This document shows, piece after piece, positions 20,207-32,000 of a stretch of 32,000 nt of DNA. How positions within the stretch are numbered: position 1 is the stretch's first letter; every line of letters begins with the position of its first letter. Made by a program: the position numbers and the translations under genes. Source of the DNA: Candidatus Nitrospira inopinata (GTDB taxonomy: Bacteria; Nitrospirota; Nitrospiria; Nitrospirales; Nitrospiraceae); the NCBI RefSeq assembly GCF_001458695.1, contig NZ_LN885086.1, positions 660,001 to 692,000 of the forward strand, written 5' to 3'. The notes below the pieces were generated by a model. That model searched no databases. It had not been told where the DNA came from and saw only the letters and a program-made list of their open reading frames with translations.

Positions 20207-21466
20207 TCACGTCTTCCCCGGCCCGGACTTGTCAAGCTTATCGATGCCCATAGTTCTCAGGATGGCCTTCTCGAAGAACGGTTCGCTCACGCCCCTTTTC
20301 ATTTTCATGAGGAAATACTTTTCCAGCCCGATTTTGGCCAGATGCACCCATTTGCCCTTCTTGGCCCAGGTGACGTTGCGCGGCGCCATTTGCGGCAACG
20401 CGACGAACGCCATGCCGGTGTCGCCCATGTCGGCCAGACAGACGGCGTTCCAGGTCGCCGTTTCTTTCTTATTGTCGTTCTCGATGTCCGCTTTGATATT
20501 GTGCACGGCGGCGGACACCATGGACTCGATCATGTAGCCGGTTTTAGGCGCACCGGTCGGAACCGGCGTCTGCTCCACCGGAGGAATCGCCACGCAGACC
20601 CCGACGGCGTAGATATTCCGATACTTGGGATTCGCCTGATAGGCGTCGATGTTGACGAAGCCCTTCGGGTTGCAGAGCCCCGGCGTGCTCGCCACGGCGT
20701 CGACGCCGGCGAACGGCGGAATCATCATGGAATAACGGAACGGCACTTCCTGTCCGTCTTCCAGAATCATCGTTCCGGGCCGCACTTCTTTAATCGAGGC
20801 GTTGGGAATCGTCTTGATCGCGTGCTCGGCGCATTCATCTTCCATCAGCCGGCGAGACCTGCCCACCCCCGCCAACCCCATGTGGCCGATATAGGGTTCC
20901 GGAGTCACAAAATACATGGGAACTTTTTTTCGCAGTTTTTTCTTCCGGAGATCGGCATCCAGGATGAAGGCCATCTCATAGGCGGGGCCGAAACAAGACG
21001 CCCCTTGCGCGGCGCCGATCACGACTGGACCGGGATCCTTGAGGAAACTTTGGTACGCCCCCCAGGCCTGTTCGGCGTGGTCCACGGTACACACCGATTG
21101 GGTAAACCCGCTGGGGCCGAGACCCGGCACCGCACCGAAGTTCAACTTAGGGCCTGTGGCGATGATGAGATAATCGTAGGGCACCTCGCCTTTCGACGTA
21201 ATGACTTGATTCTGCTCCGGTTCGATCCGCTCGGCTGCCGCATTGACGAATTCAATGCCTTTCTTCTCCAATACCGGCCCCAATGAAAAGCTGATGTCTT
21301 TTCTTGTCCGCCAACCGACCGCCACCCAGGGGTTGGAGGGAACAAAATGAAAGAAGTCCACATTCGAAATCACGGTGACTTTATGTTTCTTGTCCAACAA
21401 CGCCCGTGCTTCATAAGCGGCCGGAAGCCCTCCGATCGATGCGCCGATGATCACGACTCGTGCCAT
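20207..21466 (-). CDS. sqr: Sulfide:quinone oxidoreductase (type I-like flavoprotein)
   Basis: 419 aa. The FAD motif VVIIGASIGG is present, with FVPSNPWVAVGW, YDYLIIATGPKL, GAPKTGYMIESMVSAAVHNIKADIE and GVSEPFFEK. From memory these closely match the crystallised Acidithiobacillus ferrooxidans/Aquifex SQRs. The three catalytic-site cysteines are present (Cys126 in SVCTVDH, Cys158 in GASCFGPAYE, Cys343 in NAVCLADMGD). A GAGGAGG SD is present. Confidence 0.92.
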   Translation of the reverse strand: MARVVIIGASIGGLPAAYEARALLDKKHKVTVISNVDFFHFVPSNPWVAVGWRTRKDISFSLGPVLEKKGIEFVNAAAERIEPEQNQVITSKGEVPYDYLIIATGPKLNFGAVPGLGPSGFTQSVCTVDHAEQAWGAYQSFLKDPGPVVIGAAQGASCFGPAYEMAFILDADLRKKKLRKKVPMYFVTPEPYIGHMGLAGVGRSRRLMEDECAEHAIKTIPNASIKEVRPGTMILEDGQEVPFRYSMMIPPFAGVDAVASTPGLCNPKGFVNIDAYQANPKYRNIYAVGVCVAIPPVEQTPVPTGAPKTGYMIESMVSAAVHNIKADIENDNKKETATWNAVCLADMGDTGMAFVALPQMAPRNVTWAKKGKWVHLAKIGLEKYFLMKMKRGVSEPFFEKAILRTMGIDKLDKSGPGKT

Positions 21467-21660: not shown

Positions 21661-22128
21661 CTATCGCGATTCGCCCAGACGGTACATCTCATGACAGGCC
21701 GTACAGCGGGCGGTCATATCCGAGAGGCGCCGTATGATCTCCTGCGTGGTCGCTCCTTCAGCGATCGCATCCGCCAGCGCATCCATGTCTTTATGGATCG
21801 ACATGCCCAGTTGTTTGAACGGCAGCGGCAGTTTGGCCATGATCGTCGGTTCAACGTCGGCCGCCATGCCCATGCCCGCTTCCCTTGCAATCATGGCCAA
21901 GACGCGCCGGTCAATCTCGACATCTCCGAGGCCGCGGAGAATGCCATCGACCGTTTTCAACAAGAGTCTCATCTCAGCCAAGATCTGATCCCGCTCCGCG
22001 GGTGCCAGGAGAATCTCCGTCCGGCCGTCGCTTCCCGATCTCGTCCATCCCCGCACAAAGAGCCAGGTGCCGACGGCCAACGTCATCAGCCACAGCAGAA
22101 TCGCAATGAGACAGATAGTTCGTTTCAT
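21661..22128 (-). CDS. Membrane-anchored helical c-type cytochrome with a single C-terminal CXXCH (class II / cytochrome c'-like)
   Basis: The track ORF (21661..22410) has an implausible Gly/Pro/Arg-rich N-terminal extension that would overlap the next gene. The internal ATG at 22128 has an AAGAGGTG SD and gives a 155-aa protein. That protein starts with the anchor/signal MKRTICLIAILLWLMTLAVGTWLF, continues as an Ala/Leu/Glu/Arg-rich helical body, and ends ...MTARCTACHEMYRLGESR (CXXCH at 21691..21705, 12 residues from the C-terminus). Confidence 0.6.
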   Translation of the reverse strand: MKRTICLIAILLWLMTLAVGTWLFVRGWTRSGSDGRTEILLAPAERDQILAEMRLLLKTVDGILRGLGDVEIDRRVLAMIAREAGMGMAADVEPTIMAKLPLPFKQLGMSIHKDMDALADAIAEGATTQEIIRRLSDMTARCTACHEMYRLGESR

Positions 22129-22307: not shown

Positions 22308-22784
22308 CTAGGAGCGTGCCAGGATGACCGCCACCACGATGACAACCAGCGACAGCAGCAGGGAAAACCGGGGCACCCAACGGGCCGTGCTCACCGCCAG
22401 CTTTTCCCACGCTGTTCGTGAAGAAGCGGGAATCGACGAGGCGCGACCGACTTGGGGCCCGAGCACCACATCATGAAGCACGGTGACGACAAGGAGCAAC
22501 AGCACGAGCCAGATTTTGACGGTCGCGACCGACGACCATGATGCGGGGTTCGTCAACATCATGCCTCGCCTCGCCAAAAGAACGGGACCGGTCGTCAGCA
22601 ACAGGGCGATGGCCGTCCATACGACGACGCGAAACCTGAGCGCCGCGGAGCGAAACAGCGCCATGAATTCCGGCGCTGCCTTCCGGTTTTTGACAAGAGG
22701 CGCGAGCACCAGACTTAAAAAAAGCATGCCGCCGATCCAGGCCACGGCGGCCAAGAGATGAAGCGCGACGAGCGCGTGATACAT
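22308..22784 (-). CDS. Four-TM membrane protein, CopD/HemJ-like N-terminal motif (family unresolved)
   Basis: 158 aa with 4 predicted TM helices. The N-terminus MYHALVALHLLAAVAWIGGMLFLSLVL resembles the His-containing first helix of CopD-domain/HemJ-like proteins. I saw no clear SD. Confidence 0.5.
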   Translation of the reverse strand: MYHALVALHLLAAVAWIGGMLFLSLVLAPLVKNRKAAPEFMALFRSAALRFRVVVWTAIALLLTTGPVLLARRGMMLTNPASWSSVATVKIWLVLLLLVVTVLHDVVLGPQVGRASSIPASSRTAWEKLAVSTARWVPRFSLLLSLVVIVVAVILARS

Positions 22785-23892: not shown

Positions 23893-24501
23893 ATGAGATG
23901 GCTCTCGCTAGTAGGAATTCCGTTGGGGATCATGCTGTCGGCGCTGGGGGCTGTCGCTCCATCGGCGTTTTGCCTTGATGCTCCGGCCGGCTGGAAGCTG
24001 TATACAAACGCCCGATTCGGCTTCTCCGTTCGCTATCCCGACGGCTGGCGTCTGGGCAACCCCATGCCGGACGGGGCCGGCATCGTTCTTTACCCGCCTA
24101 TCGAACACAGCTTGGTGGCGTTATCGGGGCATTTGAATCTGATGGAAGGCAAGAGTCAGGATGGACGGCAGACACTTGATGAATTCGCCGCCGCCCATCG
24201 TCGCATCATCACGGACCTGTACAAAAAACGATCGATCACGGTGACGTGGGGAAAAGATCGCGACCTAGAACTGGCTGGGCTGCCGGCCAAGGAGTTGACG
24301 TTCGACTACGTGGATGAAAAGCGGGTGCCGATCATCGAACACCACTTCTTCACGTTAGGTCGCAATGAAGGTCGGGGAATCCGCATCAAAGTGCCTCGTT
24401 CTGAAGAAGCGAGCGTCATGTCGACGGTAAGGATCATGTTGGAGAATTATCAACCCGGACGCGACCAAGACGCAATCAGTCCATTGGTTCCCGCTCCTTG
24501 A
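23893..24501 (+). CDS. Secreted hypothetical protein (possible PsbP/DcrB-like alpha-beta sandwich; weak call)
   Basis: The ATG at 23893 has an AAGAGGA SD 6 nt upstream; the track start TTG at 23857 is less likely. The signal is MRWLSLVGIPLGIMLSALGAVAPSAFC. The mature N-terminus APAGWKLYTNARFGFSVRYPDGWRL matches the G-W...F-x-F-x-YP-x-x-W opening that I associate with PsbP/Mog1/DcrB-like folds. I recognised no catalytic motif. Confidence 0.55.
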   Translation: MRWLSLVGIPLGIMLSALGAVAPSAFCLDAPAGWKLYTNARFGFSVRYPDGWRLGNPMPDGAGIVLYPPIEHSLVALSGHLNLMEGKSQDGRQTLDEFAAAHRRIITDLYKKRSITVTWGKDRDLELAGLPAKELTFDYVDEKRVPIIEHHFFTLGRNEGRGIRIKVPRSEEASVMSTVRIMLENYQPGRDQDAISPLVPAP

Positions 24502-24591: not shown

Positions 24592-25119
24592 TTAGTACGG
24601 CCTCAGGTGGCGTCCTTTGATCTCCAGTGGCGCAGACGTCAGCTCCCGGTACAGACGATGGAACGATTCCGTCGTCAGCATTGGGTCCTGCAGCTTGGCC
24701 AGTTCCGAGGCGTCGATCGGATACTCAACGGTATCGTCGAAATTGGAAGAAGCAATGGTGATGAATCGGGGCGGGAAGAGTCGTTCCGGCAAAAGGATCT
24801 CGATGCCGCCGTTGTACTTAATGGCGAGACGGATGGCTTCTCTCGCCTTGTCCGCCGGAACATCGCGACCCAATCCGATGTTTTTAGGCGGGCGCCCCAT
24901 TTTAGCATATTGGAAATGAACGTTGGTCAGTCCAGCCTGGACAAATTCCGCTTTGATCTCGCTCTCTCGACTTTGGTGCTCTTTGGCGAGCACGGCTTCA
25001 ACGCGACTCACCGGCGGAACCTGCGTATCTTCACCGAAGACCGCGACGTGCGTCGGCCAGCCCGCCATCATGGCGAGGATCATGACTCCGGCTCGGAACG
25101 GATTACGAACGCGCATCAT
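24592..25119 (-). CDS. Secreted hypothetical protein immediately downstream of the giant multicopper oxidase
   Basis: The track ORF 24592..25284 would overlap the MCO stop codon. The internal ATG-ATG at 25119/25116 has a GAAGAGGA SD about 13 nt upstream and gives a 175-aa protein with the signal MMRVRNPFRAGVMILAMMAGWPTHVAVFG. I recognised no family. Confidence 0.5.
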   Translation of the reverse strand: MMRVRNPFRAGVMILAMMAGWPTHVAVFGEDTQVPPVSRVEAVLAKEHQSRESEIKAEFVQAGLTNVHFQYAKMGRPPKNIGLGRDVPADKAREAIRLAIKYNGGIEILLPERLFPPRFITIASSNFDDTVEYPIDASELAKLQDPMLTTESFHRLYRELTSAPLEIKGRHLRPY

Positions 25120-25174
25120 CTTGTGTTTTGAATCCTCTTCAACTTGAAATATGACGGGCGGCACCAGAAGCAAA

Positions 25175-25196
25175 CCGGGGGGCATAAGCCCCCCGG
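25175..25196 (-). terminator. Candidate rho-independent terminator downstream of the multicopper oxidase gene
   Basis: Perfect 9-bp GC stem CCGGGGGGC / GCCCCCCGG with a 4-nt loop (ATAA). On the minus strand it is followed by TTTGCTTCT (25166-25174). Confidence 0.45.
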
Positions 25197-25229
25197 CGTC
25201 ACACTCAGAATATCCGGCACACCGAGACG

Positions 25230-25273: not shown

Positions 25274-28200
25274 CTACTCTTCACTCATCGATGTCGGAGT
25301 AGCCTTTGCTTCCCCACTCGGCTGTTCCACCCGTTTGGTCGGTGGAACTTGCGGGTTCAAGGGCAGGATTCTCCGATCATCGACCGGCAAAACCTTGAAC
25401 AGACCCCACTGCCCTGCGTTGGCATAGGCCGGCCTCTGATTCTTCCAGATGTAATCGCCGACGATCTTGTTCGGACCACCGGCTCCTCCGGTCAGATACG
25501 CGTTGATGATCTCCGACCCGCCGAATTCCATCGTGCTGACCTGGTCGGCCCCCTTCATGTACGGCTCGTGCGGCCACTCGTGACCGTCCACCGTAAAGAG
25601 CTGGACCTGTTCGCTGAACGCACCCAGCACGTGGATGATCACCGGGTCTCCCACGTGAGCCTGCAACAAGGGCGTTGATGGAATCTCGCCCGCCTTCACG
25701 CAACTGAAGACTTCCGACACGTCACAGCCTTTCTCAACTCTCCAGGCTGCCGGCTCAGACCGATAGTTCACGGCCGTAATTCCCGCCACTTGCTGAATGT
25801 ACGGCATGAAGCTGACCCCCACGATGTTGTCCTCGTCTTGGAACATGAGCGAGAAGTCACGATAATTCTTTCGCTTCTCGTTCCCAGGGATCGTTCGATC
25901 GACAAGCACGTCGGCTCGCCAACTGCTCTTCATAGAGATATCTTCGCCGGTCACGGGGTCTCGATACTGAGAGCCTCTCGGTCCGACGATGATGGAGCCG
26001 AACAATCCGTTTCGAGGGTTCTCCACCACGTTGCCCCAATCCTGAATCAACGCGGCGACTTCCCCATACTCCGGATGAGCGTAGTACGTGTACGTTTTCT
26101 TTTCTCCCGGACCGATCGTCTGATCGCCGGGATTGTTGCCGACATTCGCCCCGAATGAGTCCTTCGGATCGAAGGCCATCATATCGACGTGGAAGCCGGC
26201 TCGCTCTTTCGCCATCTCGTTCTTGAGGTGGATTTTGACGCAATCTCCGACGTTGACGTGGAGCGTCAACGGACTCGGCTTCAACTCGCCGGCCTTGACC
26301 TTTCCACGATCGCCTTCGAGCACGTACATTTTGCCTTGTTCGTTCCCAAAGACCATCTTTCTCTCGAGATCGACTTCCATTACACCCGGCGCCCCTTCGT
26401 GATAACGGATCTGCTGATCGACCGCCGACACGTTAAACGACTTGACGGGGGCGTCGGCAGGACACACCGAGGAAGCAGATTTTTGAATCTCCTCGCGTCC
26501 CGGCAATGGTTTCAGGTCTTTCTGCAGCTCATCATACACACGGATGATTCCCCAGCTTCCCTCCGAGAAGTGGGAGGCTCTTCCGCTGTAGTACAGATAA
26601 TCGCCGGCCATTTTTTGTGGTCCTCCCGCGGCCGGAATGGCCGGATCATACCGCTCGCCGATGACCAGATGGATGGTGCTCCGAGGCATCGCCGTGGCCG
26701 CGTACCGCTCCAGCGGGAACCAGTGCCCCGTGACGTGCCACGTGTGTACCTCATTGGCCGAACCGACCAATGCTCTCACGAGAATCGGATCTCCCAGATA
26801 TGCCCGCAGCAACGGCGTGGCCGGATCACCGTGAATCCCCGAGACGAACAATTTCGACGGGTCCGGATCATTGGCCAGTCGCACGCTCAACGGCTCGACG
26901 CGCATGCTGTAGCCGCTGCCAGTCGTCGCCTCTCCACCGTTCAAGAACCACATGGGCGACTTGTTGATTCTTGGCGGGAATTGATGAGACGGCGGACCGT
27001 CCACGGTCACCGCCCCGACCTTGGCTTGCGGATTATCCGTTGTGATCAGCTCCGCCGTTCTGGCATTGCTGTCCATGATATGCATCATGACTTCTCGGAA
27101 GCTGCCGCGAATGTGCGCGGAGACGGGCTCCAACGTGTGAATGTCCGCGATGGGACCGCTCCGAATTTCTTTGCCCGTGACCGGGTCATGATACGTCGAG
27201 CGCGGCGGCTCCGTAATCAGGGCCGAGAAGAGCCCATGACCCCACGTATCGGTCCCGAACACGTGATCGTGCCAGTACACCGTTCCGAGATCCGCGTCGA
27301 TGTACCACCGCTCCCGAATGAACTCGACGCTCACAATGTCGTTTTTCTTATGCCCGTGCTTCAAAGGACGGTCAAACGTCACGGTCTTCCCATTGATGCT
27401 TTTGATTCTCGCAACTTCGAAATACTTGGGATCATCCATCCCAACGCCGAGTTCGATATTGACATGGAACTTCGACGGGTCCGCCACCGTAATGCTCGAT
27501 GCACCGGCCTTGACGTCCGCCGTCAGCACGGTATTGGCCGGCAGCGGCATACCCTCGTTCGGCGCAGGATCTTTCAACATCGTGAAGGCACGGAGCGACA
27601 TGTCATAAGAGAACCCGATCGTCGGCCCGTCCGACGCGCTGGTGTCGAACTGGAAGAAATGCGGATGGAGATTGATTTTATTCGCCCACCCCGTTCGCGC
27701 ATCGTCCGGAATTTCGTTCTTGAAAATGACGTCAACGCAGTCATACACGTTGGCCCGGATGACCAACGGCACCTGTTTCTCCGGTGTCTTCCTGACCTCT
27801 TCCTCCTCCTCGTGCAGCACATAAATCATGCCGATCGGATCCACGAGGGCCGGCGTTTTGGCCGTCGCTTTCTTCAAGGTAATCGGCAGCGTAATCGAAT
27901 GGATCGTGAAATACTTTCTCGGAGCATTCTCCGGACAGAGACTCCACGGCCCTTGCTCTCCGGGTCTGGCCGGTTCCGTACTCTTGGTTCCGTCTTCCCG
28001 CACATGGAACGGCTCCAGCCACGGAGCTCCTCCGTGATTCGGAGCAAAGGGCGGACGCTTCCCCAGGTGCGGACGAAGCCATGGGAACGCCAGTTTTCCC
28101 GTCTGCGGGTCAAACAGAATGGGGGGGCGCTTCAAAGGAGCCGGCGAGACGTAGTTGGCCCACTGATGCGGCGTCTCCGGCTCGTTCAGCGCCAGATTCC

Positions 28201-30007
28201 CTTCCCACTTCCAATTGACGACCGTGGCGTCATTGGCCTGCGCCTGCTTCACCTGGTCCTCGGTCTTCCCCGGCAGGCCCTGAGGCGGAAGCATGTACTC
28301 AACCCAATCCTTGATGGACACCTTCACCGGATTGGCTTTCCAATCCGTCTTGTCCTTAGTGATTTCGTACTTCTTGCCGCCGTACCAATCGACCATCGTC
28401 CCGACGAGTTTGTCAGACGTGACGGCCGGCTTGATCTTCCCCTTGCGATCCGGCAACTCAACCAACGGCTTCATGACGTCGGTTTGAAAACCGGGGGCTT
28501 GCAACGTGTTGTACACGCGCCAGAACCCCCACATGCCTGTTACATAGTGCTGGGGGATATGGCAGTGGAACACGAACTCTCCGGCGAGCGCCTGCAATCC
28601 TCCAGAACCACCCTCGATGACTTCGTCGTAGATTTCAGATGGCCCGATCGACTGGACGTCCAAACGATCCGACGTATCGTTGATGAGCGGGAACTTGACT
28701 GGTCCATTCTTGGACAGAGTCGGATCGAGCCTGCTGGTCTCGGGCTGTCTGGCCCAGCGAATCGACCCTCCATGCAGGTGATGCGAGTGCACGATTTCCG
28801 ATCCGCCGACCATGCGAAACTTGGCCGGATCCCCCAGATAAGAGCGAGGAATCGTGGTGGCGGGATCGCCGAACGTGTAAGAGCCGTACCCTTGCGACTC
28901 ATCCGCAAAACCGATCAAGTGAGCTTGCAACTCCAATCGTTCTCCATGCGGCTCGCTCCGATAGTTGAGCAGCCGGGCGGCCGGCCGATAGGTGTCGGTA
29001 TGAGCGTCCCGCTGCGGAAGCATGTCGCCCTTGCGGTTCAACAGCCGGAACGTCTCATCCCCCGCCTCATGGTAGAAAATGACGAACTCGCGAAAATCGG
29101 ATCCGCCCTCCACATCGATCATGGCTTCCCAGCCGCTCTTCATCTCTTCCCCGGTAAAGGGACTCAGATAACGGGAACCTCTCGGTTCGACTACGAGCGA
29201 TCCAAGCAAACCCAGTGAATATTGATCCCTGGTGGCATGGCTATGAAAAGCACGACCACCCTCCTGAAGATCGACCGGGATATACCATTCAAATTCCCCG
29301 ACCTTGCCCGGAGCGACGAGCGCGTCCGGGTTGTTGGCCGTCGCCGGCTTGCCGGTCGCAGCCACCAACATCTGCGACCCATTGATGATCATGTTCGTCG
29401 GCTCGCCGTCGATCGCGTTGCGCAGGGTAATCCGAAGACAATCACCCTGATTGGCCCGAATCACCAGCGGCTGGATCAAATCGCCCTGCAGGCCGGTCGA
29501 CACCGCCCCTCCGGCGAACGTCGGATCCTCGCTCTCGCGGGCCGCTCTATTTTTCTCTTCCTCCTCGCGAACGCCCGGAACATTTTCCGTCAGCGCATAC
29601 ATGTACCCGGGGTAAAAGTCTCCGAACCGATTCACGGTGATCTCGACGTTGATGGCCGTGATATCGTACGCCCGGACTGGAGCATGGGCGGGACAACGCA
29701 TCCCCTGGGTCACCTTCACCTTATCCTGATCCTCCGCCACCAGCAAAACTCCCTGCTGCATGGCGTGGGCGCTGGCCCCTCTGAATGGGCCCTTGGTCTG
29801 CACTTCCCGCTCGACCTGTTCGATCGCCTTCGACATTTTGTCTTGCAGCGTCGGGCCGGCCTGCCAATGCACGGGCTGCATCGGATTGGCCTTTGAATCA
29901 TGCGTATCGTGGGACGTGACGGCACCGACTGGAGGCGCCCCAGCCAATGTCAGGAAGATTGCACAGCCAAGGACTCCCGACCAAATCCTTTTGATTGAAG
30001 CAGTCAT
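25274..30007 (-). CDS. Giant secreted six-cupredoxin-domain multicopper oxidase (MnxG/MofA/ceruloplasmin-like architecture)
   Basis: 1577 aa, with a GAGGAGG SD 9 nt upstream of the ATG at 30007. The signal is MTASIKRIWSGVLGCAIFLTLAGAPPVGA. MCO ligand motifs: VHSHHLHGG (28769-28792), FHCHIPQHYVTGMWG (28532-28567), LHPHFFQFD (27659-27667) and YWHDH (27263-27277). The protein shows a three-fold internal repeat of a two-domain unit; see findings. Confidence 0.88.
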   Translation of the reverse strand: MTASIKRIWSGVLGCAIFLTLAGAPPVGAVTSHDTHDSKANPMQPVHWQAGPTLQDKMSKAIEQVEREVQTKGPFRGASAHAMQQGVLLVAEDQDKVKVTQGMRCPAHAPVRAYDITAINVEITVNRFGDFYPGYMYALTENVPGVREEEEKNRAARESEDPTFAGGAVSTGLQGDLIQPLVIRANQGDCLRITLRNAIDGEPTNMIINGSQMLVAATGKPATANNPDALVAPGKVGEFEWYIPVDLQEGGRAFHSHATRDQYSLGLLGSLVVEPRGSRYLSPFTGEEMKSGWEAMIDVEGGSDFREFVIFYHEAGDETFRLLNRKGDMLPQRDAHTDTYRPAARLLNYRSEPHGERLELQAHLIGFADESQGYGSYTFGDPATTIPRSYLGDPAKFRMVGGSEIVHSHHLHGGSIRWARQPETSRLDPTLSKNGPVKFPLINDTSDRLDVQSIGPSEIYDEVIEGGSGGLQALAGEFVFHCHIPQHYVTGMWGFWRVYNTLQAPGFQTDVMKPLVELPDRKGKIKPAVTSDKLVGTMVDWYGGKKYEITKDKTDWKANPVKVSIKDWVEYMLPPQGLPGKTEDQVKQAQANDATVVNWKWEGNLALNEPETPHQWANYVSPAPLKRPPILFDPQTGKLAFPWLRPHLGKRPPFAPNHGGAPWLEPFHVREDGTKSTEPARPGEQGPWSLCPENAPRKYFTIHSITLPITLKKATAKTPALVDPIGMIYVLHEEEEEVRKTPEKQVPLVIRANVYDCVDVIFKNEIPDDARTGWANKINLHPHFFQFDTSASDGPTIGFSYDMSLRAFTMLKDPAPNEGMPLPANTVLTADVKAGASSITVADPSKFHVNIELGVGMDDPKYFEVARIKSINGKTVTFDRPLKHGHKKNDIVSVEFIRERWYIDADLGTVYWHDHVFGTDTWGHGLFSALITEPPRSTYHDPVTGKEIRSGPIADIHTLEPVSAHIRGSFREVMMHIMDSNARTAELITTDNPQAKVGAVTVDGPPSHQFPPRINKSPMWFLNGGEATTGSGYSMRVEPLSVRLANDPDPSKLFVSGIHGDPATPLLRAYLGDPILVRALVGSANEVHTWHVTGHWFPLERYAATAMPRSTIHLVIGERYDPAIPAAGGPQKMAGDYLYYSGRASHFSEGSWGIIRVYDELQKDLKPLPGREEIQKSASSVCPADAPVKSFNVSAVDQQIRYHEGAPGVMEVDLERKMVFGNEQGKMYVLEGDRGKVKAGELKPSPLTLHVNVGDCVKIHLKNEMAKERAGFHVDMMAFDPKDSFGANVGNNPGDQTIGPGEKKTYTYYAHPEYGEVAALIQDWGNVVENPRNGLFGSIIVGPRGSQYRDPVTGEDISMKSSWRADVLVDRTIPGNEKRKNYRDFSLMFQDEDNIVGVSFMPYIQQVAGITAVNYRSEPAAWRVEKGCDVSEVFSCVKAGEIPSTPLLQAHVGDPVIIHVLGAFSEQVQLFTVDGHEWPHEPYMKGADQVSTMEFGGSEIINAYLTGGAGGPNKIVGDYIWKNQRPAYANAGQWGLFKVLPVDDRRILPLNPQVPPTKRVEQPSGEAKATPTSMSEE

Positions 30008-30044
30008 AACGTTTGGCCTCCTCGTTCAGACACAGATTTTTTAT

Positions 30045-30086
30045 GAGACAAAGACAACAAGGCAAAGAACAGAGAAGAGAAAGAAC
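30045..30086 (-). promoter_or_regulatory. Pyrimidine-rich (CU) tract in the leader just upstream of the MCO ribosome-binding site
   Basis: The plus strand reads GAGACAAAGACAACAAGGCAAAGAACAGAGAAGAGAAAGAAC, about 86% purine. The mRNA-sense strand is therefore GUUCUUUCUCUUCUCUGUUCUUUGCCUUGUUGUCUUUGUCUC, 38-79 nt upstream of the ATG. A weak sigma70-like pair overlaps it: TTGCCT (30060-30065), 16 nt spacer, TAAAAA (30038-30043). The function is not established. Confidence 0.3.
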
Positions 30087-30125
30087 TTGTTCGCGAAAGA
30101 ATGTGCTGGACCACGGCCATCCAGG

Positions 30126-30149
30126 TGCTGTTTATCGTGTTGTTTATCG
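30126..30149. repeat. Two tandem 12-mers in the MCO upstream region (possible regulator site)
   Basis: TGCTGTTTATCG (30126-30137) and TGTTGTTTATCG (30138-30149), 11/12 identical. On the gene-sense strand this reads CGATAAACAACA CGATAAACAGCA, 119-142 nt upstream of the ATG. Confidence 0.5.
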
Positions 30150-30599
30150 CAGTCGACGGGAATCTCTTTCGGCGCGGAACTGACACCGCTCTGCTTTGAT
30201 CTCCAGCCGAATGTTTATAACGATTCGAGCGGGATTTTTCAAGAGACCTTGCTTCCTCCTGCACCTTACCCCACAAACTCCGAGATGCGCCGCCGACTGA
30301 CCATATCTGCAACCATCTTACTACCTGTCGGGCGAAGAGGGAACCCTCCCTCCCGTAAAAAACGAGAGCCGGCCCCGCCGAGAAACATTGCTCGTCAGGT
30401 AAAGGAAACGCGAGGCTCCTCTCCGAGATGGCAACCGACCCAAAAAGGACGCCTCGGAGATGAGCGGGGTTTCCCATTCAGAGAAGAGGGGCAAGAAAAT
30501 GCGCCGCCACGGGGTCTCGTTAAATTCAACGTCGGCGTGTAACGGAGGCTTATCCCTTCCTCCTTACGGCCGCCTATCATACCCTTCATCTCGCTTTTC

Positions 30600-31037
30600 T
30601 TATGTTCCGTCGTCTTTCATGGCGGCGAGATGCTTCATCGCTTCTCGTGCCGCGGCGCGAGCCTTGATCGCAGGGTTCAGGCTGGCTCCCGGGTCCACCT
30701 TATCACCCATTTCTTCGACCCGTTTACAATGTTTGATGGCTTCCTCCAAATGCGGCGCGGCCTCCCTGCCTTGACTATTGCCGGCAGGCAACAGTTTGAG
30801 GATGGCCTGAGCTTGCCTGGACACTTCGGCGCAATGATGCAGAATAGCCCTCCCGTCACCCATTCCGCCGTGCATCACCATTTCCTCGGCGTCTCTTACC
30901 ATCGCCTGGCCTTGTTCTTGAATCTGCTTGATGGAGGCCGCGTGAACGGGCGCAGTCCCCATGACCAGCCAACCCAACAGCATGAATACAAAGAACTTTG
31001 GGGAGACCTTCCTTTTCATCATCGCCTGCTTGCTCAC
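30600..31037 (-). CDS. Small periplasmic helical His/Met/Cys-rich metal-binding protein (SmbP- or DUF305-like; family unresolved)
   Basis: 145 aa. The signal is (MSKQA)MMKRKVSPKFFVFMLLGWLVMGTAPVHA. The mature part is about 112 aa and helical, with MVMHGGMGDG and two related H-C motifs, ILHHCAEVSRQA and IKHCKRVEEMG, plus HLEEAIKH and AREAMKHLAAM. The GTG at 31037 overlaps the upstream stop codon (GTGA). ATG-ATG at 31022/31019 is an alternative start. Confidence 0.5.
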   Translation of the reverse strand: MSKQAMMKRKVSPKFFVFMLLGWLVMGTAPVHAASIKQIQEQGQAMVRDAEEMVMHGGMGDGRAILHHCAEVSRQAQAILKLLPAGNSQGREAAPHLEEAIKHCKRVEEMGDKVDPGASLNPAIKARAAAREAMKHLAAMKDDGT

Positions 31038-31804
31038 CTCGTCTCAAACACAAATTCGATCGCGGCCGTCCCCTTCGGTCCGACCGTCACGTCTTGTTCC
31101 CGAGCGCCCAGCGCCGGATGCCAGGCCTTGATACGGTAGGTGCCGGCCGGCAAATCGTCAATTATGAACGAGCCGGTCTCGCCGGTCACCGCATAATACG
31201 GATTGTCGATCGCATAGCCCCAGTTCTGCATATAGGGATGCATACCGCACTGCATGGTGAAGACCTTTCGGCCCTTGACAAGATTTACGACGTCCGTCGT
31301 GCCGGTCGCCTTCAGCGACGGCCTATGCAGAACAATGTCCACGCCCGATTGATCGTAGGCGTACCCCTGAATGTCGTGCGACACGGGATCTCGATTTGTG
31401 ACGGTCAACTGCCGTTTATCGCTGACGACCGTGACAAACGGTAAAAACTGGCAGACGACGGCCTCCACTTTGGCGTCCGTAAAGGTAAACGGCTTGCCGC
31501 TCTGGACTCCTTCTATCACGACCACAACGTCCTTGAGTCCCCCGCCTTGCCCGACCTGGACCTCCGTCATGAACCGCCGCCCGTTTCCATCCGACAACGC
31601 GCCGCAAAACACCTGGTCAGGATACCGGCGCAGCTCGAATTCCTTGGGCGGCGGAATCGCGCCTTGAAATGTGACGGTTCCTCGCACAGTGGCGCCGTCG
31701 GTCACAGTTCGCGATTCATAGGCCCAACTGTATTCATCTTGCGAGAGCCCTGCCGTGAACACCCAGGCAATCAGGCCGACTCCCATCATGGTGGATCGTT
31801 TCAC
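31034..31804 (-). CDS. Secreted type-1 cupredoxin flanked by beta-sandwich (carboxypeptidase-regulatory-like) segments
   Basis: 256 aa. The GTG at 31804 has a GGAGGAGGAA SD 6 nt upstream and overlaps the upstream stop codon (GTGA). The signal is MKRSTMMGVGLIAWVFTAG. Blue-copper ligand pattern: His143 (NRDPVSHDIQG) and Cys186-x2-His189-x2-Met192 (FTMQCGMHPYMQ), which has amicyanin-like loop spacing. The N-terminal GATVRGTVTF and C-terminal TGETGSFIIDDLPAGTYRIKAWHPALG are typical of CarboxypepD_reg-like beta-sandwiches. Confidence 0.65.
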   Translation of the reverse strand: MKRSTMMGVGLIAWVFTAGLSQDEYSWAYESRTVTDGATVRGTVTFQGAIPPPKEFELRRYPDQVFCGALSDGNGRRFMTEVQVGQGGGLKDVVVVIEGVQSGKPFTFTDAKVEAVVCQFLPFVTVVSDKRQLTVTNRDPVSHDIQGYAYDQSGVDIVLHRPSLKATGTTDVVNLVKGRKVFTMQCGMHPYMQNWGYAIDNPYYAVTGETGSFIIDDLPAGTYRIKAWHPALGAREQDVTVGPKGTAAIEFVFETR

Positions 31805-32000
31805 TGTTGTTCCTCCTCCGAATGTTGGCCGCCAGAAGACGGCGCTTGCATGGACTCCCGCGGAACCGCCGGGTCGAGTCGCTGGGGAAGCTCAAACAGG
31901 TAGGGCGACTGTTCGGTAAAGACGACTCTGCGGAACTCTTCCGACCACTGCCCCTGCTTGCTCACCGTCTTCAGGGGGAACCGTTGCGCCTTCGTCACCC
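31801..32000 (-). CDS. 3' end of an unidentified gene, translationally coupled to the cupredoxin gene (5' part outside the window)
   Basis: The frame is open to the right window edge, ...TKAQRFPLKTVSKQGQWSEEFRRVVFTEQSPYLFELPQRLDPAVPRESMQAPSSGGQHSEEEQQ*. The TGA at 31801-31803 overlaps the next gene's GTG. I recognised no family in the 66 visible residues. Confidence 0.4.
   Translation of the reverse strand, partial: VTKAQRFPLKTVSKQGQWSEEFRRVVFTEQSPYLFELPQRLDPAVPRESMQAPSSGGQHSEEEQQ

Follow-up and report, generated by a model that had tools for sequence, protein, structure and literature searches.

What a giant multicopper oxidase (MCO) may do in a nitrifying bacterium, and whether the arrangement of its copper ligands is new, are the questions raised by a 32,000-nucleotide (nt) stretch of the Candidatus Nitrospira inopinata genome (GCF_001458695.1, contig NZ_LN885086.1, positions 660,001 to 692,000 of the forward strand), hereafter referred to as the window. 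A preliminary description, made from the letters and their translation, had singled out a 1577-amino-acid (aa) open reading frame (ORF) as a six-domain MCO with a permuted, and supposedly novel, set of copper ligands. We found this ORF on the minus strand, and it encodes an MnxG-type six-domain oxidase from Nitrospira, hereafter MCO-B, whose architecture is already known and not new. At the level of sequence, the fold family, the ligand set, the conservation of that set and its correspondence to MnxG are all established. The protein is probably a Sec-exported, disulfide-stabilised six-cupredoxin oxidase that works as one catalytic unit, with a metal cation as the likeliest substrate and Mn(II)/Mn(III) in the leading position. 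The coordinates of all features are collected in Table 1.

Profile searches placed MCO-B in the MCO superfamily, with Cu-oxidase_3 (PF07732; residues 173-276, 50.2 bits against a cut-off of 21) and Cu-oxidase_2 (PF07731; residues 389-497, 30 bits against a cut-off of 20.4) both above the Pfam gathering score; these Cu-oxidase profiles recognise cupredoxin domains. Taken in isolation, domain 1 matches Cu-oxidase_3 at E = 1.5e-6 and domain 5 does so weakly (E = 0.036). Three two-domain units (residues 95-530, 686-1176 and 1177-1577) align with one another by pairwise BLASTP far beyond chance (E = 1.9e-19, 8.3e-28 and 9.5e-24), which is the six-cupredoxin, three-unit organisation of the MnxG-type bacterial MCOs. 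The signatures on which the preliminary description had based its three tandem copies were reproduced exactly, including CP..AP at C105, C691 and C1182, PL[VT][IL][RH][AV]N..DC at residues 180, 747 and 1246, GL[LF]..P[RP][GR]S.Y..P[FV]TG at residues 266, 925 and 1334, the GDP strands, and the W-G-x-x-[RK]-V ends. In the repeat alignment, FHCHIPQHYVTGMWG of domain 2 lies opposite YYSGRASHFSEGSWG of domain 4 and WKNQRPAYANAGQWG of domain 6, which confirms the replacement of HCH by YSG and KNQ in these two domains. The remnants proposed earlier also fall into place, with H255-S-H257 of domain 1 aligned with H913/H915 and H1273 of domain 5 aligned with H781.

The copper ligands form a single set. 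H-x-H occurs at residues 255, 407, 410, 481, 781, 884 and 913, and HCH occurs once, at 481-483; every residue of the one surviving set of type 1 (T1) and trinuclear ligands was found where the preliminary description had put it, comprising a T1 site of two His, a Cys and an axial Met plus the eight trinuclear histidines of the MCO superfamily. The T1 ligands lie solely in domain 2 and the trinuclear ligands are split between domains 2 and 3, which at the level of the ligands is the MnxG-type arrangement, and domain 2 can be aligned both with two-domain laccases and with residues 281-345 of MnxG. Across 124 of 124 homologues (at least 52% identity) the 12 ligands do not vary, one H487D sequence excepted. 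We further compared MCO-B with 1.84 billion cluster representatives (phmmer; 310 clusters at E <= 1e-30), and all 12 ligands were found at the same positions in 56 of the 71 distant representatives listed (at least 1200 aa), the remainder mostly showing alignment gaps. Three of these 71 representatives also have HCH at the position equivalent to domain 4, so a second blue-copper or cluster site may survive in some superfamily members.

Among solved structures, the best relative is the MnxG of Bacillus sp. PL-12 (9bxa_A, 'Structure of Mnx H340A complex'), which phmmer aligned in six stretches (E = 3e-94, 320 bits), and 9bxa is also the top Foldseek match for a model of residues 95-1000 (E = 2.7e-32), bearing out the kinship with MnxG-type Mn oxidases that the preliminary description had suggested. 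The ligands run in register: H407/H410/H412 correspond to H281/H284/H286 of Bacillus MnxG, H481-C482-H483 to H334-C335-H336, H487 to position 340 (Ala in the deposited H340A mutant), M492 to M345, H781/H783 to the FHIHF motif, and H913/H915 to FFHDHLF. Given this residue-for-residue register, a studied Mn oxidase shares the order in which the L3/L4 motifs precede L1/L2. The permuted order is thus real but not peculiar to this protein, being shared by Bacillus MnxG and by the 56 distant representatives mentioned above, and the claim of novelty falls. Vasin et al. (2013) had already located the trinuclear site between domain 2 and domain 3, with the blue copper solely in domain 2, in all bacterial six-domain MCOs that they analysed, and had described the same domain 2/3 trinuclear site in algal Fox1; they also recorded residual ligands of lost 1/6 and 4/5 sites (PMC3600357). 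The placement of the ligands at the domain 2/3 junction, as deduced from the translation, is correct but was already published.

These comparisons suggest how the enzyme might work. A blue (T1) copper would be held in domain 2 by H407, C482, H487 and M492, and a trinuclear cluster would form at the domain 2/3 interface from H410, H412, H481 and H483 together with H781, H783, H913 and H915, if the ligands of the two domains converge in three dimensions as the alignments lead us to expect. Single electrons from the substrate would enter at the blue copper and pass via C482 and the flanking H481/H483 (the H-C-H bridge) to the trinuclear cluster, which would reduce O2 to water, and domains 1, 4, 5 and 6 would be degenerate copies in a scaffold role. 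The N-terminus carries a putative Sec-type signal peptide and, as read by eye in the translation, has no twin-arginine motif, and we infer export via Sec and a periplasmic location. Four Cys pairs (C105/C190, C691/C757, C1182/C1256 and C1428/C1436) are invariant in the clade; the first three occupy equivalent positions of domains 1, 3 and 5 and are common in distant relatives too. Their constancy in the clade, together with the I/L that Bacillus MnxG shows opposite these Cys (its alignment starts after the C105 position), suggests that they are probably periplasmic disulfides that stabilise the oxidase. The Glu runs of domains 1 and 3, which the preliminary description had regarded as possible attractors of a metal cation, lie on modelled helices (AlphaFold) and are partly conserved: solely E149/E150 and E733-735 come close to invariance, and they do so inside the clade, with weak conservation beyond it.

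Since the sole characterised relatives, the MnxG proteins of Bacillus and Pseudomonas putida, are Mn oxidases, Mn(II)/Mn(III) leads among the possible substrates; by homology and ecology we regard Mn(II) as the leading candidate, with about an even chance of being the right one. More than 1000 homologues were found, the best being a protein from a Nitrospira sp. metagenome-assembled genome (MAG; 94% identity), and the identical protein is encoded on a 2.23-Mb JGI metagenome contig. A scan of one genome per species returned at least 589 loci with relatives, and the best 80 of these all belong to Nitrospirota, comprising Nitrospira MAGs and Candidatus Manganitrophaceae. Several of the Nitrospira MAGs bear rapid-sand-filter-style names (RSF1, RSF6, RSF12 and CG24C), and the homologues in Manganitrophus genomes are 53-62% identical to MCO-B. 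The sand-filter literature lists 'mnxG' in all Nitrospira MAGs from such filters and suggests a role in Mn removal. For the Manganitrophaceae, bacteria able to grow on Mn(II), Yu et al. (2022) counted 'two novel MCOs' among the genes at the core of every member (PMC9040806).

Several observations weigh against an MnxG-type Mn oxidase. The Foldseek alignment with Bacillus MnxG has 19% identity, a remote relationship. NF041487, the NCBIfam profile of P. putida GB-1 MnxG, is the sole significant NCBIfam match (E = 2.3e-41, in three short stretches), but its equivalog score of 140.9 bits lies far below the cut-off of 3100. The MnxE and MnxF subunits are required for the activity of Bacillus Mnx (PMC5622069), and the 256-, 204-, 202-, 163- and 140-aa proteins encoded beside MCO-B match no other 9bxa chain at the sequence level, nor do they give a meaningful match to any PDB chain. 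The AlphaFold model of residues 95-1000 has a mean predicted local distance difference test (pLDDT) score of 69, with domain 2 below 50 (residues 258-402 of the modelled fragment). Authors in the field also warn that Mn oxidation is yet to be shown for any nitrifier and that homology among MCOs is a poor guide to the substrate. Given the score below the NF041487 cut-off and the lack of matches to MnxE/F-type partners, we call the protein MnxG-like and not MnxG.

Table 1. Coordinates, strands and supporting evidence of features in the window (positions counted from the first letter of the window; residue numbers refer to MCO-B)
Feature	Position	Strand	Evidence or remark
MnxG-type six-domain multicopper oxidase gene (paralogue MCO-B)	25274..30007	-	1577-aa ORF; Pfam; 9bxa_A match
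Sec-type signal peptide, putative	29921..30007	-	about residues 1-29, MTASIKRIWSGVLGCAIFLTLAGAPPVGA/V; read from the translation
Domain 1, residues 95-290	29138..29725	-	degenerate copper site with remnant H255/H257; C105-C190 pair; REEEEKNR helix
Domain 2, residues 291-530	28418..29137	-	sole blue-copper domain, with half of the trinuclear ligands; Cu-oxidase_2 match
Codons of H407-S-H-H410-L-H412	28772..28789	-	H407, predicted T1 ligand; H410 and H412, predicted trinuclear ligands
Codons of H481-C482-H483-x3-H487-x4-M492	28532..28567	-	C482, H487 and M492, predicted T1 ligands; H481 and H483, predicted type 3 ligands
Conserved Trp-rich linker joining domains 2 and 3, residues 531-685 (155 aa)	27953..28417	-	many invariant residues; moderate model confidence
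Domain 3, residues 686-960	27128..27952	-	four trinuclear His; C691-C757 pair; HEEEEEV helix; aligns with 9bxa residues 450-616
Codons of H781-P-H783	27659..27667	-	predicted trinuclear ligands, L1-type motif
Beta-rich insertion of ~95 aa in domain 3, residues ~800-895	~27323-27607	-	between H783 and H913; pLDDT 83-95
Codons of H913-D-H915	27263..27271	-	predicted trinuclear ligands, L2-type motif WHDH
Domain 4, residues 961-1176	26480..27127	-	degenerate even domain; YSG replaces HCH; repeat alignment
Domain 5, residues 1177-1360	25928..26479	-	degenerate odd domain; remnant H1273; C1182-C1256 pair; repeat alignment
Domain 6, residues 1361-1577	25277..25927	-	degenerate even domain; KNQ replaces HCH; C1428-C1436 pair
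Strong terminator-like GC-rich hairpin	25174..25197	-	77 nt 3' of the oxidase stop; 10-bp stem with 9 GC pairs, then T-rich tail
256-aa exported protein with C-terminal CarboxypepD_reg (transthyretin-like) domain	31034..31804	-	Pfam; 52/82 loci, including Manganitrophus
Exported 140-aa helical protein rich in His and Met, weakly similar to SMBP (small metal-binding protein)	30600..31022	-	40/82 loci
163-aa protein	24592..25083	-	called on related contigs; 46/82 loci, Manganitrophaceae-type loci at 39-46% identity
202-aa exported protein	23893..24501	+	30/82 loci
FGE-sulfatase-family protein, 282 aa	22937..23785	+	PF03781, E = 2.5e-47; 35/82 loci
158-aa membrane protein, DUF4149/CopD-like	22308..22784	-	weak Pfam and NCBIfam matches

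MCO-B does not stand alone. A tandem paralogue, MCO-A (1587 aa, 70% identical, with all 12 ligands), lies ~2.6 kb upstream on the same contig, just past window position 32000 (L005:2641-7404 in our locus set), and both paralogue types are present in many Nitrospira MAGs. The genes are ordered MCO-A, 204 aa, 256 aa, 140 aa, a 590-nt gap, MCO-B and 163 aa, with the end of the 204-aa gene, which lies between MCO-A and the 256-aa gene, falling within window positions 31801-32000. Beyond the 163-aa gene, genes for the 202-aa protein and the FGE-sulfatase-family protein follow on the other strand, and then the DUF4149/CopD-like gene. We counted the conservation of these neighbours over 82 oxidase loci and found several of them to be conserved. 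Of the flanking small genes to which the preliminary description had referred, we reject the 157-aa ORF overlapping the oxidase start codon (30004-30477, minus strand) as a gene because it is unconserved and uncalled elsewhere: it is not called on related contigs, tblastn found it at 4 of the 82 loci, mostly in near-identical sequences, and its composition is odd. Loci with MCO-A only carry the same genes directly after the oxidase, so MCO-B and the 163-aa gene look inserted into an older cassette. A related arrangement is seen in Manganitrophus sp. SA1, with a CopD-like gene directly upstream of the oxidase and a CarboxypepD_reg gene downstream.

Among the neighbours, the FGE family has links to copper: FGE is itself copper-dependent, and genes of this family (NirV) are found alongside those for copper nitrite reductase. 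The 140-aa protein scored 30 bits against the Pfam SMBP cut-off of 29 and matched SmbP (3u8v) at E = 0.063. The SMBP-like, CopD-like and FGE-family neighbours probably serve the supply of copper or the maturation of the oxidase. The 163-aa protein has no family match, and the 202-aa protein has neither a family nor a PDB match.

The same neighbours bear on whether the oxidase could instead use the same copper chemistry for periplasmic metal or oxidative-stress homeostasis, either through CueO- or ferroxidase-like oxidation of Cu(I) or Fe(II), or through Mn(III) that scavenges superoxide. We consider this main rival unlikely, if still deserving serious attention. The SMBP-like, CopD-like and FGE-family genes give a hint that copper is handled here, the oxidase has an RND efflux system downstream of it, and the literature describes MCOs as promiscuous. 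Lucker et al. (2013) proposed Mn(III)-based defence against reactive oxygen species for the periplasmic, MnxG-like oxidase that Nitrospina and Nitrospira possess, because the organisms concerned lack superoxide dismutase and catalase (PMC3578206). Against this, the copper-related neighbours would be equally well explained by the loading of four Cu into the oxidase itself, and no CueO-type Met-rich Cu(I)-binding insert was noticed on reading the oxidase sequence. The RND pump lies outside the conserved cassette in more distant loci. It scores better as a multidrug type than as a CusA/CzcA type, and we accordingly rejected a copper-resistance island as a description of this region. Metal oxidation by an MnxG-type enzyme, with Mn leading, remains the reading we prefer.

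The FGE-family neighbour also touches on an organic substrate. Many MCOs are laccases, and the FGE family includes PvdO, a protein of periplasmic pyoverdine maturation (a weak match here), so MCO-B might oxidise phenols or siderophore or pigment precursors, or cross-link proteins, and have no metal substrate at all. Given that the nearest characterised relatives are metal oxidases and that chemolithoautotrophic Nitrospirota have no obvious phenolic substrate, we regard this as very unlikely.

We then focused on the 256-aa protein, whose N-terminal part keeps NRDPVxH ... CGMHxxMQxW from Nitrospira to Manganitrophus, with a C-x2-H-x2-M motif spaced as in T1 sites of the amicyanin type. This spacing suggests that the protein may be a cupredoxin-like partner of the oxidase. 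As a cupredoxin outright it was tried and set aside, with no Pfam cupredoxin match and with a PDB profile search that gave transthyretin-like domains alone; hhalign against an approximate amicyanin sequence aligned only 13 columns at a probability of 3.9%, and the AlphaFold model had a pLDDT of 51. If it were a blue-copper protein, it could act as a periplasmic electron carrier, as could a cytochrome c, and the oxidase would then conserve energy from metal oxidation by exchanging electrons with that carrier instead of passing all of them to O2. The two oxidase copies among the core genes of the Mn(II)-growing Manganitrophaceae would fit such a scheme, as would the H ... C-x2-H-x2-M residues kept by the 256-aa protein and a small CxxCH protein encoded nearby. 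On the other side, the invariant, full trinuclear O2-reducing site argues for direct reduction of O2, the searches and models just described lend the cupredoxin reading no support, and for Mn lithotrophy Yu et al. prefer Cyc2 and porin-cytochrome complexes (PMC9040806). Together, these points make energy conservation by this route highly improbable, and we retain an oxidase that would hand its electrons directly to O2.

The small CxxCH protein is a 155-aa membrane-anchored protein (21661-22128, minus strand) whose one CxxCH is C-terminal; it matches cytochrome c' weakly (E = 4e-5), short of the Pfam cut-off. Its gene sits between the CopD-like gene and a gene for an SQR-like flavoprotein (20207-21466). 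A Rieske/cytochrome b/cytochrome c cluster was also observed near the oxidase in Manganitrophus sp. SA1.

A bolder proposal is that the Nitrospirota clade represents a distinct, MnxE/F-independent metal-oxidising system, in which tandem paralogues and a cassette of the 204-aa, 256-aa, SMBP-like, FGE-like and CopD-like proteins would oxidise Mn(II) or another metal, perhaps with a blue-copper carrier and energy conservation. Taken as a whole, this proposal seems to us a long shot. If the MnxE/F-independent reading were true, Nitrospira and Manganitrophaceae could oxidise Mn(II) or another metal.

Two further parts of MCO-B also drew our attention. Neither the linker between domains 2 and 3 (residues 531-685) nor the domain 3 insertion (residues ~800-895) has a Pfam match. 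The insertion follows the pattern AG..SI.V.....F..G..I.IG......E...I..I.G.T.TF..PL...H..G..V, which may recall a small beta-barrel module of secreted actinobacterial proteins.

At the level of the transcript, a GGAGG ribosome-binding site lies ~10 nt 5' of the oxidase ATG. The 590-nt gap 5' of the gene (30008-30599) is highly divergent among close relatives except for this ribosome-binding site, which alone aligned in a search for conserved regulatory blocks in 34 distinct upstream regions of B-type loci. No riboswitch or other known RNA, such as an Mn riboswitch, was found in the leader by Rfam, either at the gathering threshold or at E values up to 5. In more distant Nitrospirota (L001, GCA_016200325.1; L002, Manganitrophus sp. 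SA1), the oxidase gene or genes have a sigma-54-dependent activator gene directly upstream. Given these adjoining activators, we searched for a sigma-54 promoter upstream of MCO-B and found no match in 30008-30599, the window-wide matches being at chance level. An ORF of 1009 aa on the plus strand (26189-29218), antisense to the oxidase, is most likely no gene but a consequence of GC-rich coding sequence (G+C content of the window, 59.8%).

Drinking-water sand filters, soils and wastewater plants all count Nitrospira among their most abundant bacteria, and MCO-B together with its tandem paralogue MCO-A are the obvious candidates for any Mn oxidation by these organisms, the same family being core in the Mn-lithotrophic Manganitrophaceae. 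What the analysis adds is a residue-level map of one live copper site, the observation that no MnxE/F-type partners were detected, and a conserved accessory cassette.

Compared with known systems, MCO-B is most like Bacillus MnxG (PL-12/SG-1), which likewise has six cupredoxin domains, T1 copper solely in domain 2, and trinuclear ligands split in the same order between domain 2 (HxxHxH, HCH) and domain 3 (HxH, HDH). The Nitrospira oxidase is 350 residues longer, with a domain 2-3 linker longer by ~90 residues and a ~95-aa domain 3 insertion that Bacillus MnxG lacks, and it differs further in its predicted signal peptide and its three repeat-positioned Cys pairs; moreover, Bacillus MnxG belongs to the spore coat, whereas MCO-B belongs to a Gram-negative nitrifier. 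The MnxG of P. putida GB-1 is similarly a giant exported six-domain MCO of the same superfamily, from a proteobacterium, but its profile spans ~1900 residues against 1577 here, and MCO-B is not its orthologue. Ceruloplasmin, hephaestin and factor VIII also have six domains by triplication of a two-domain unit, and the second-tier Foldseek matches were 4ejx and 2j5w (E ~1e-10 to 1e-9). The ceruloplasmin layout, with a trinuclear site between domain 1 and domain 6 plus T1 sites in domains 2, 4 and 6, is nevertheless not that of MCO-B, which has YSG and KNQ in domains 4 and 6 and retains H255/H257 alone in domain 1. According to its published description, Fox1 of Chlamydomonas and Dunaliella likewise has its trinuclear site between domain 2 and domain 3, but this ferroxidase comes from eukaryotes and retains a T1 site in each of domains 2, 4 and 6 (PMC3600357). 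Finally, the two-domain laccase SLAC (4m3h) has HTFHMHGH opposite the H407-H412 motif and YWHYHDH opposite the H913/H915 motif, and its ligands align with HxxHxH and HCHxxxHxxxxM in domain 2 and with WHxH in domain 3. In SLAC the trinuclear sites form between the subunits of a trimer, whereas in the Nitrospira oxidase the corresponding interface lies within one molecule, with two of the three sites lost.

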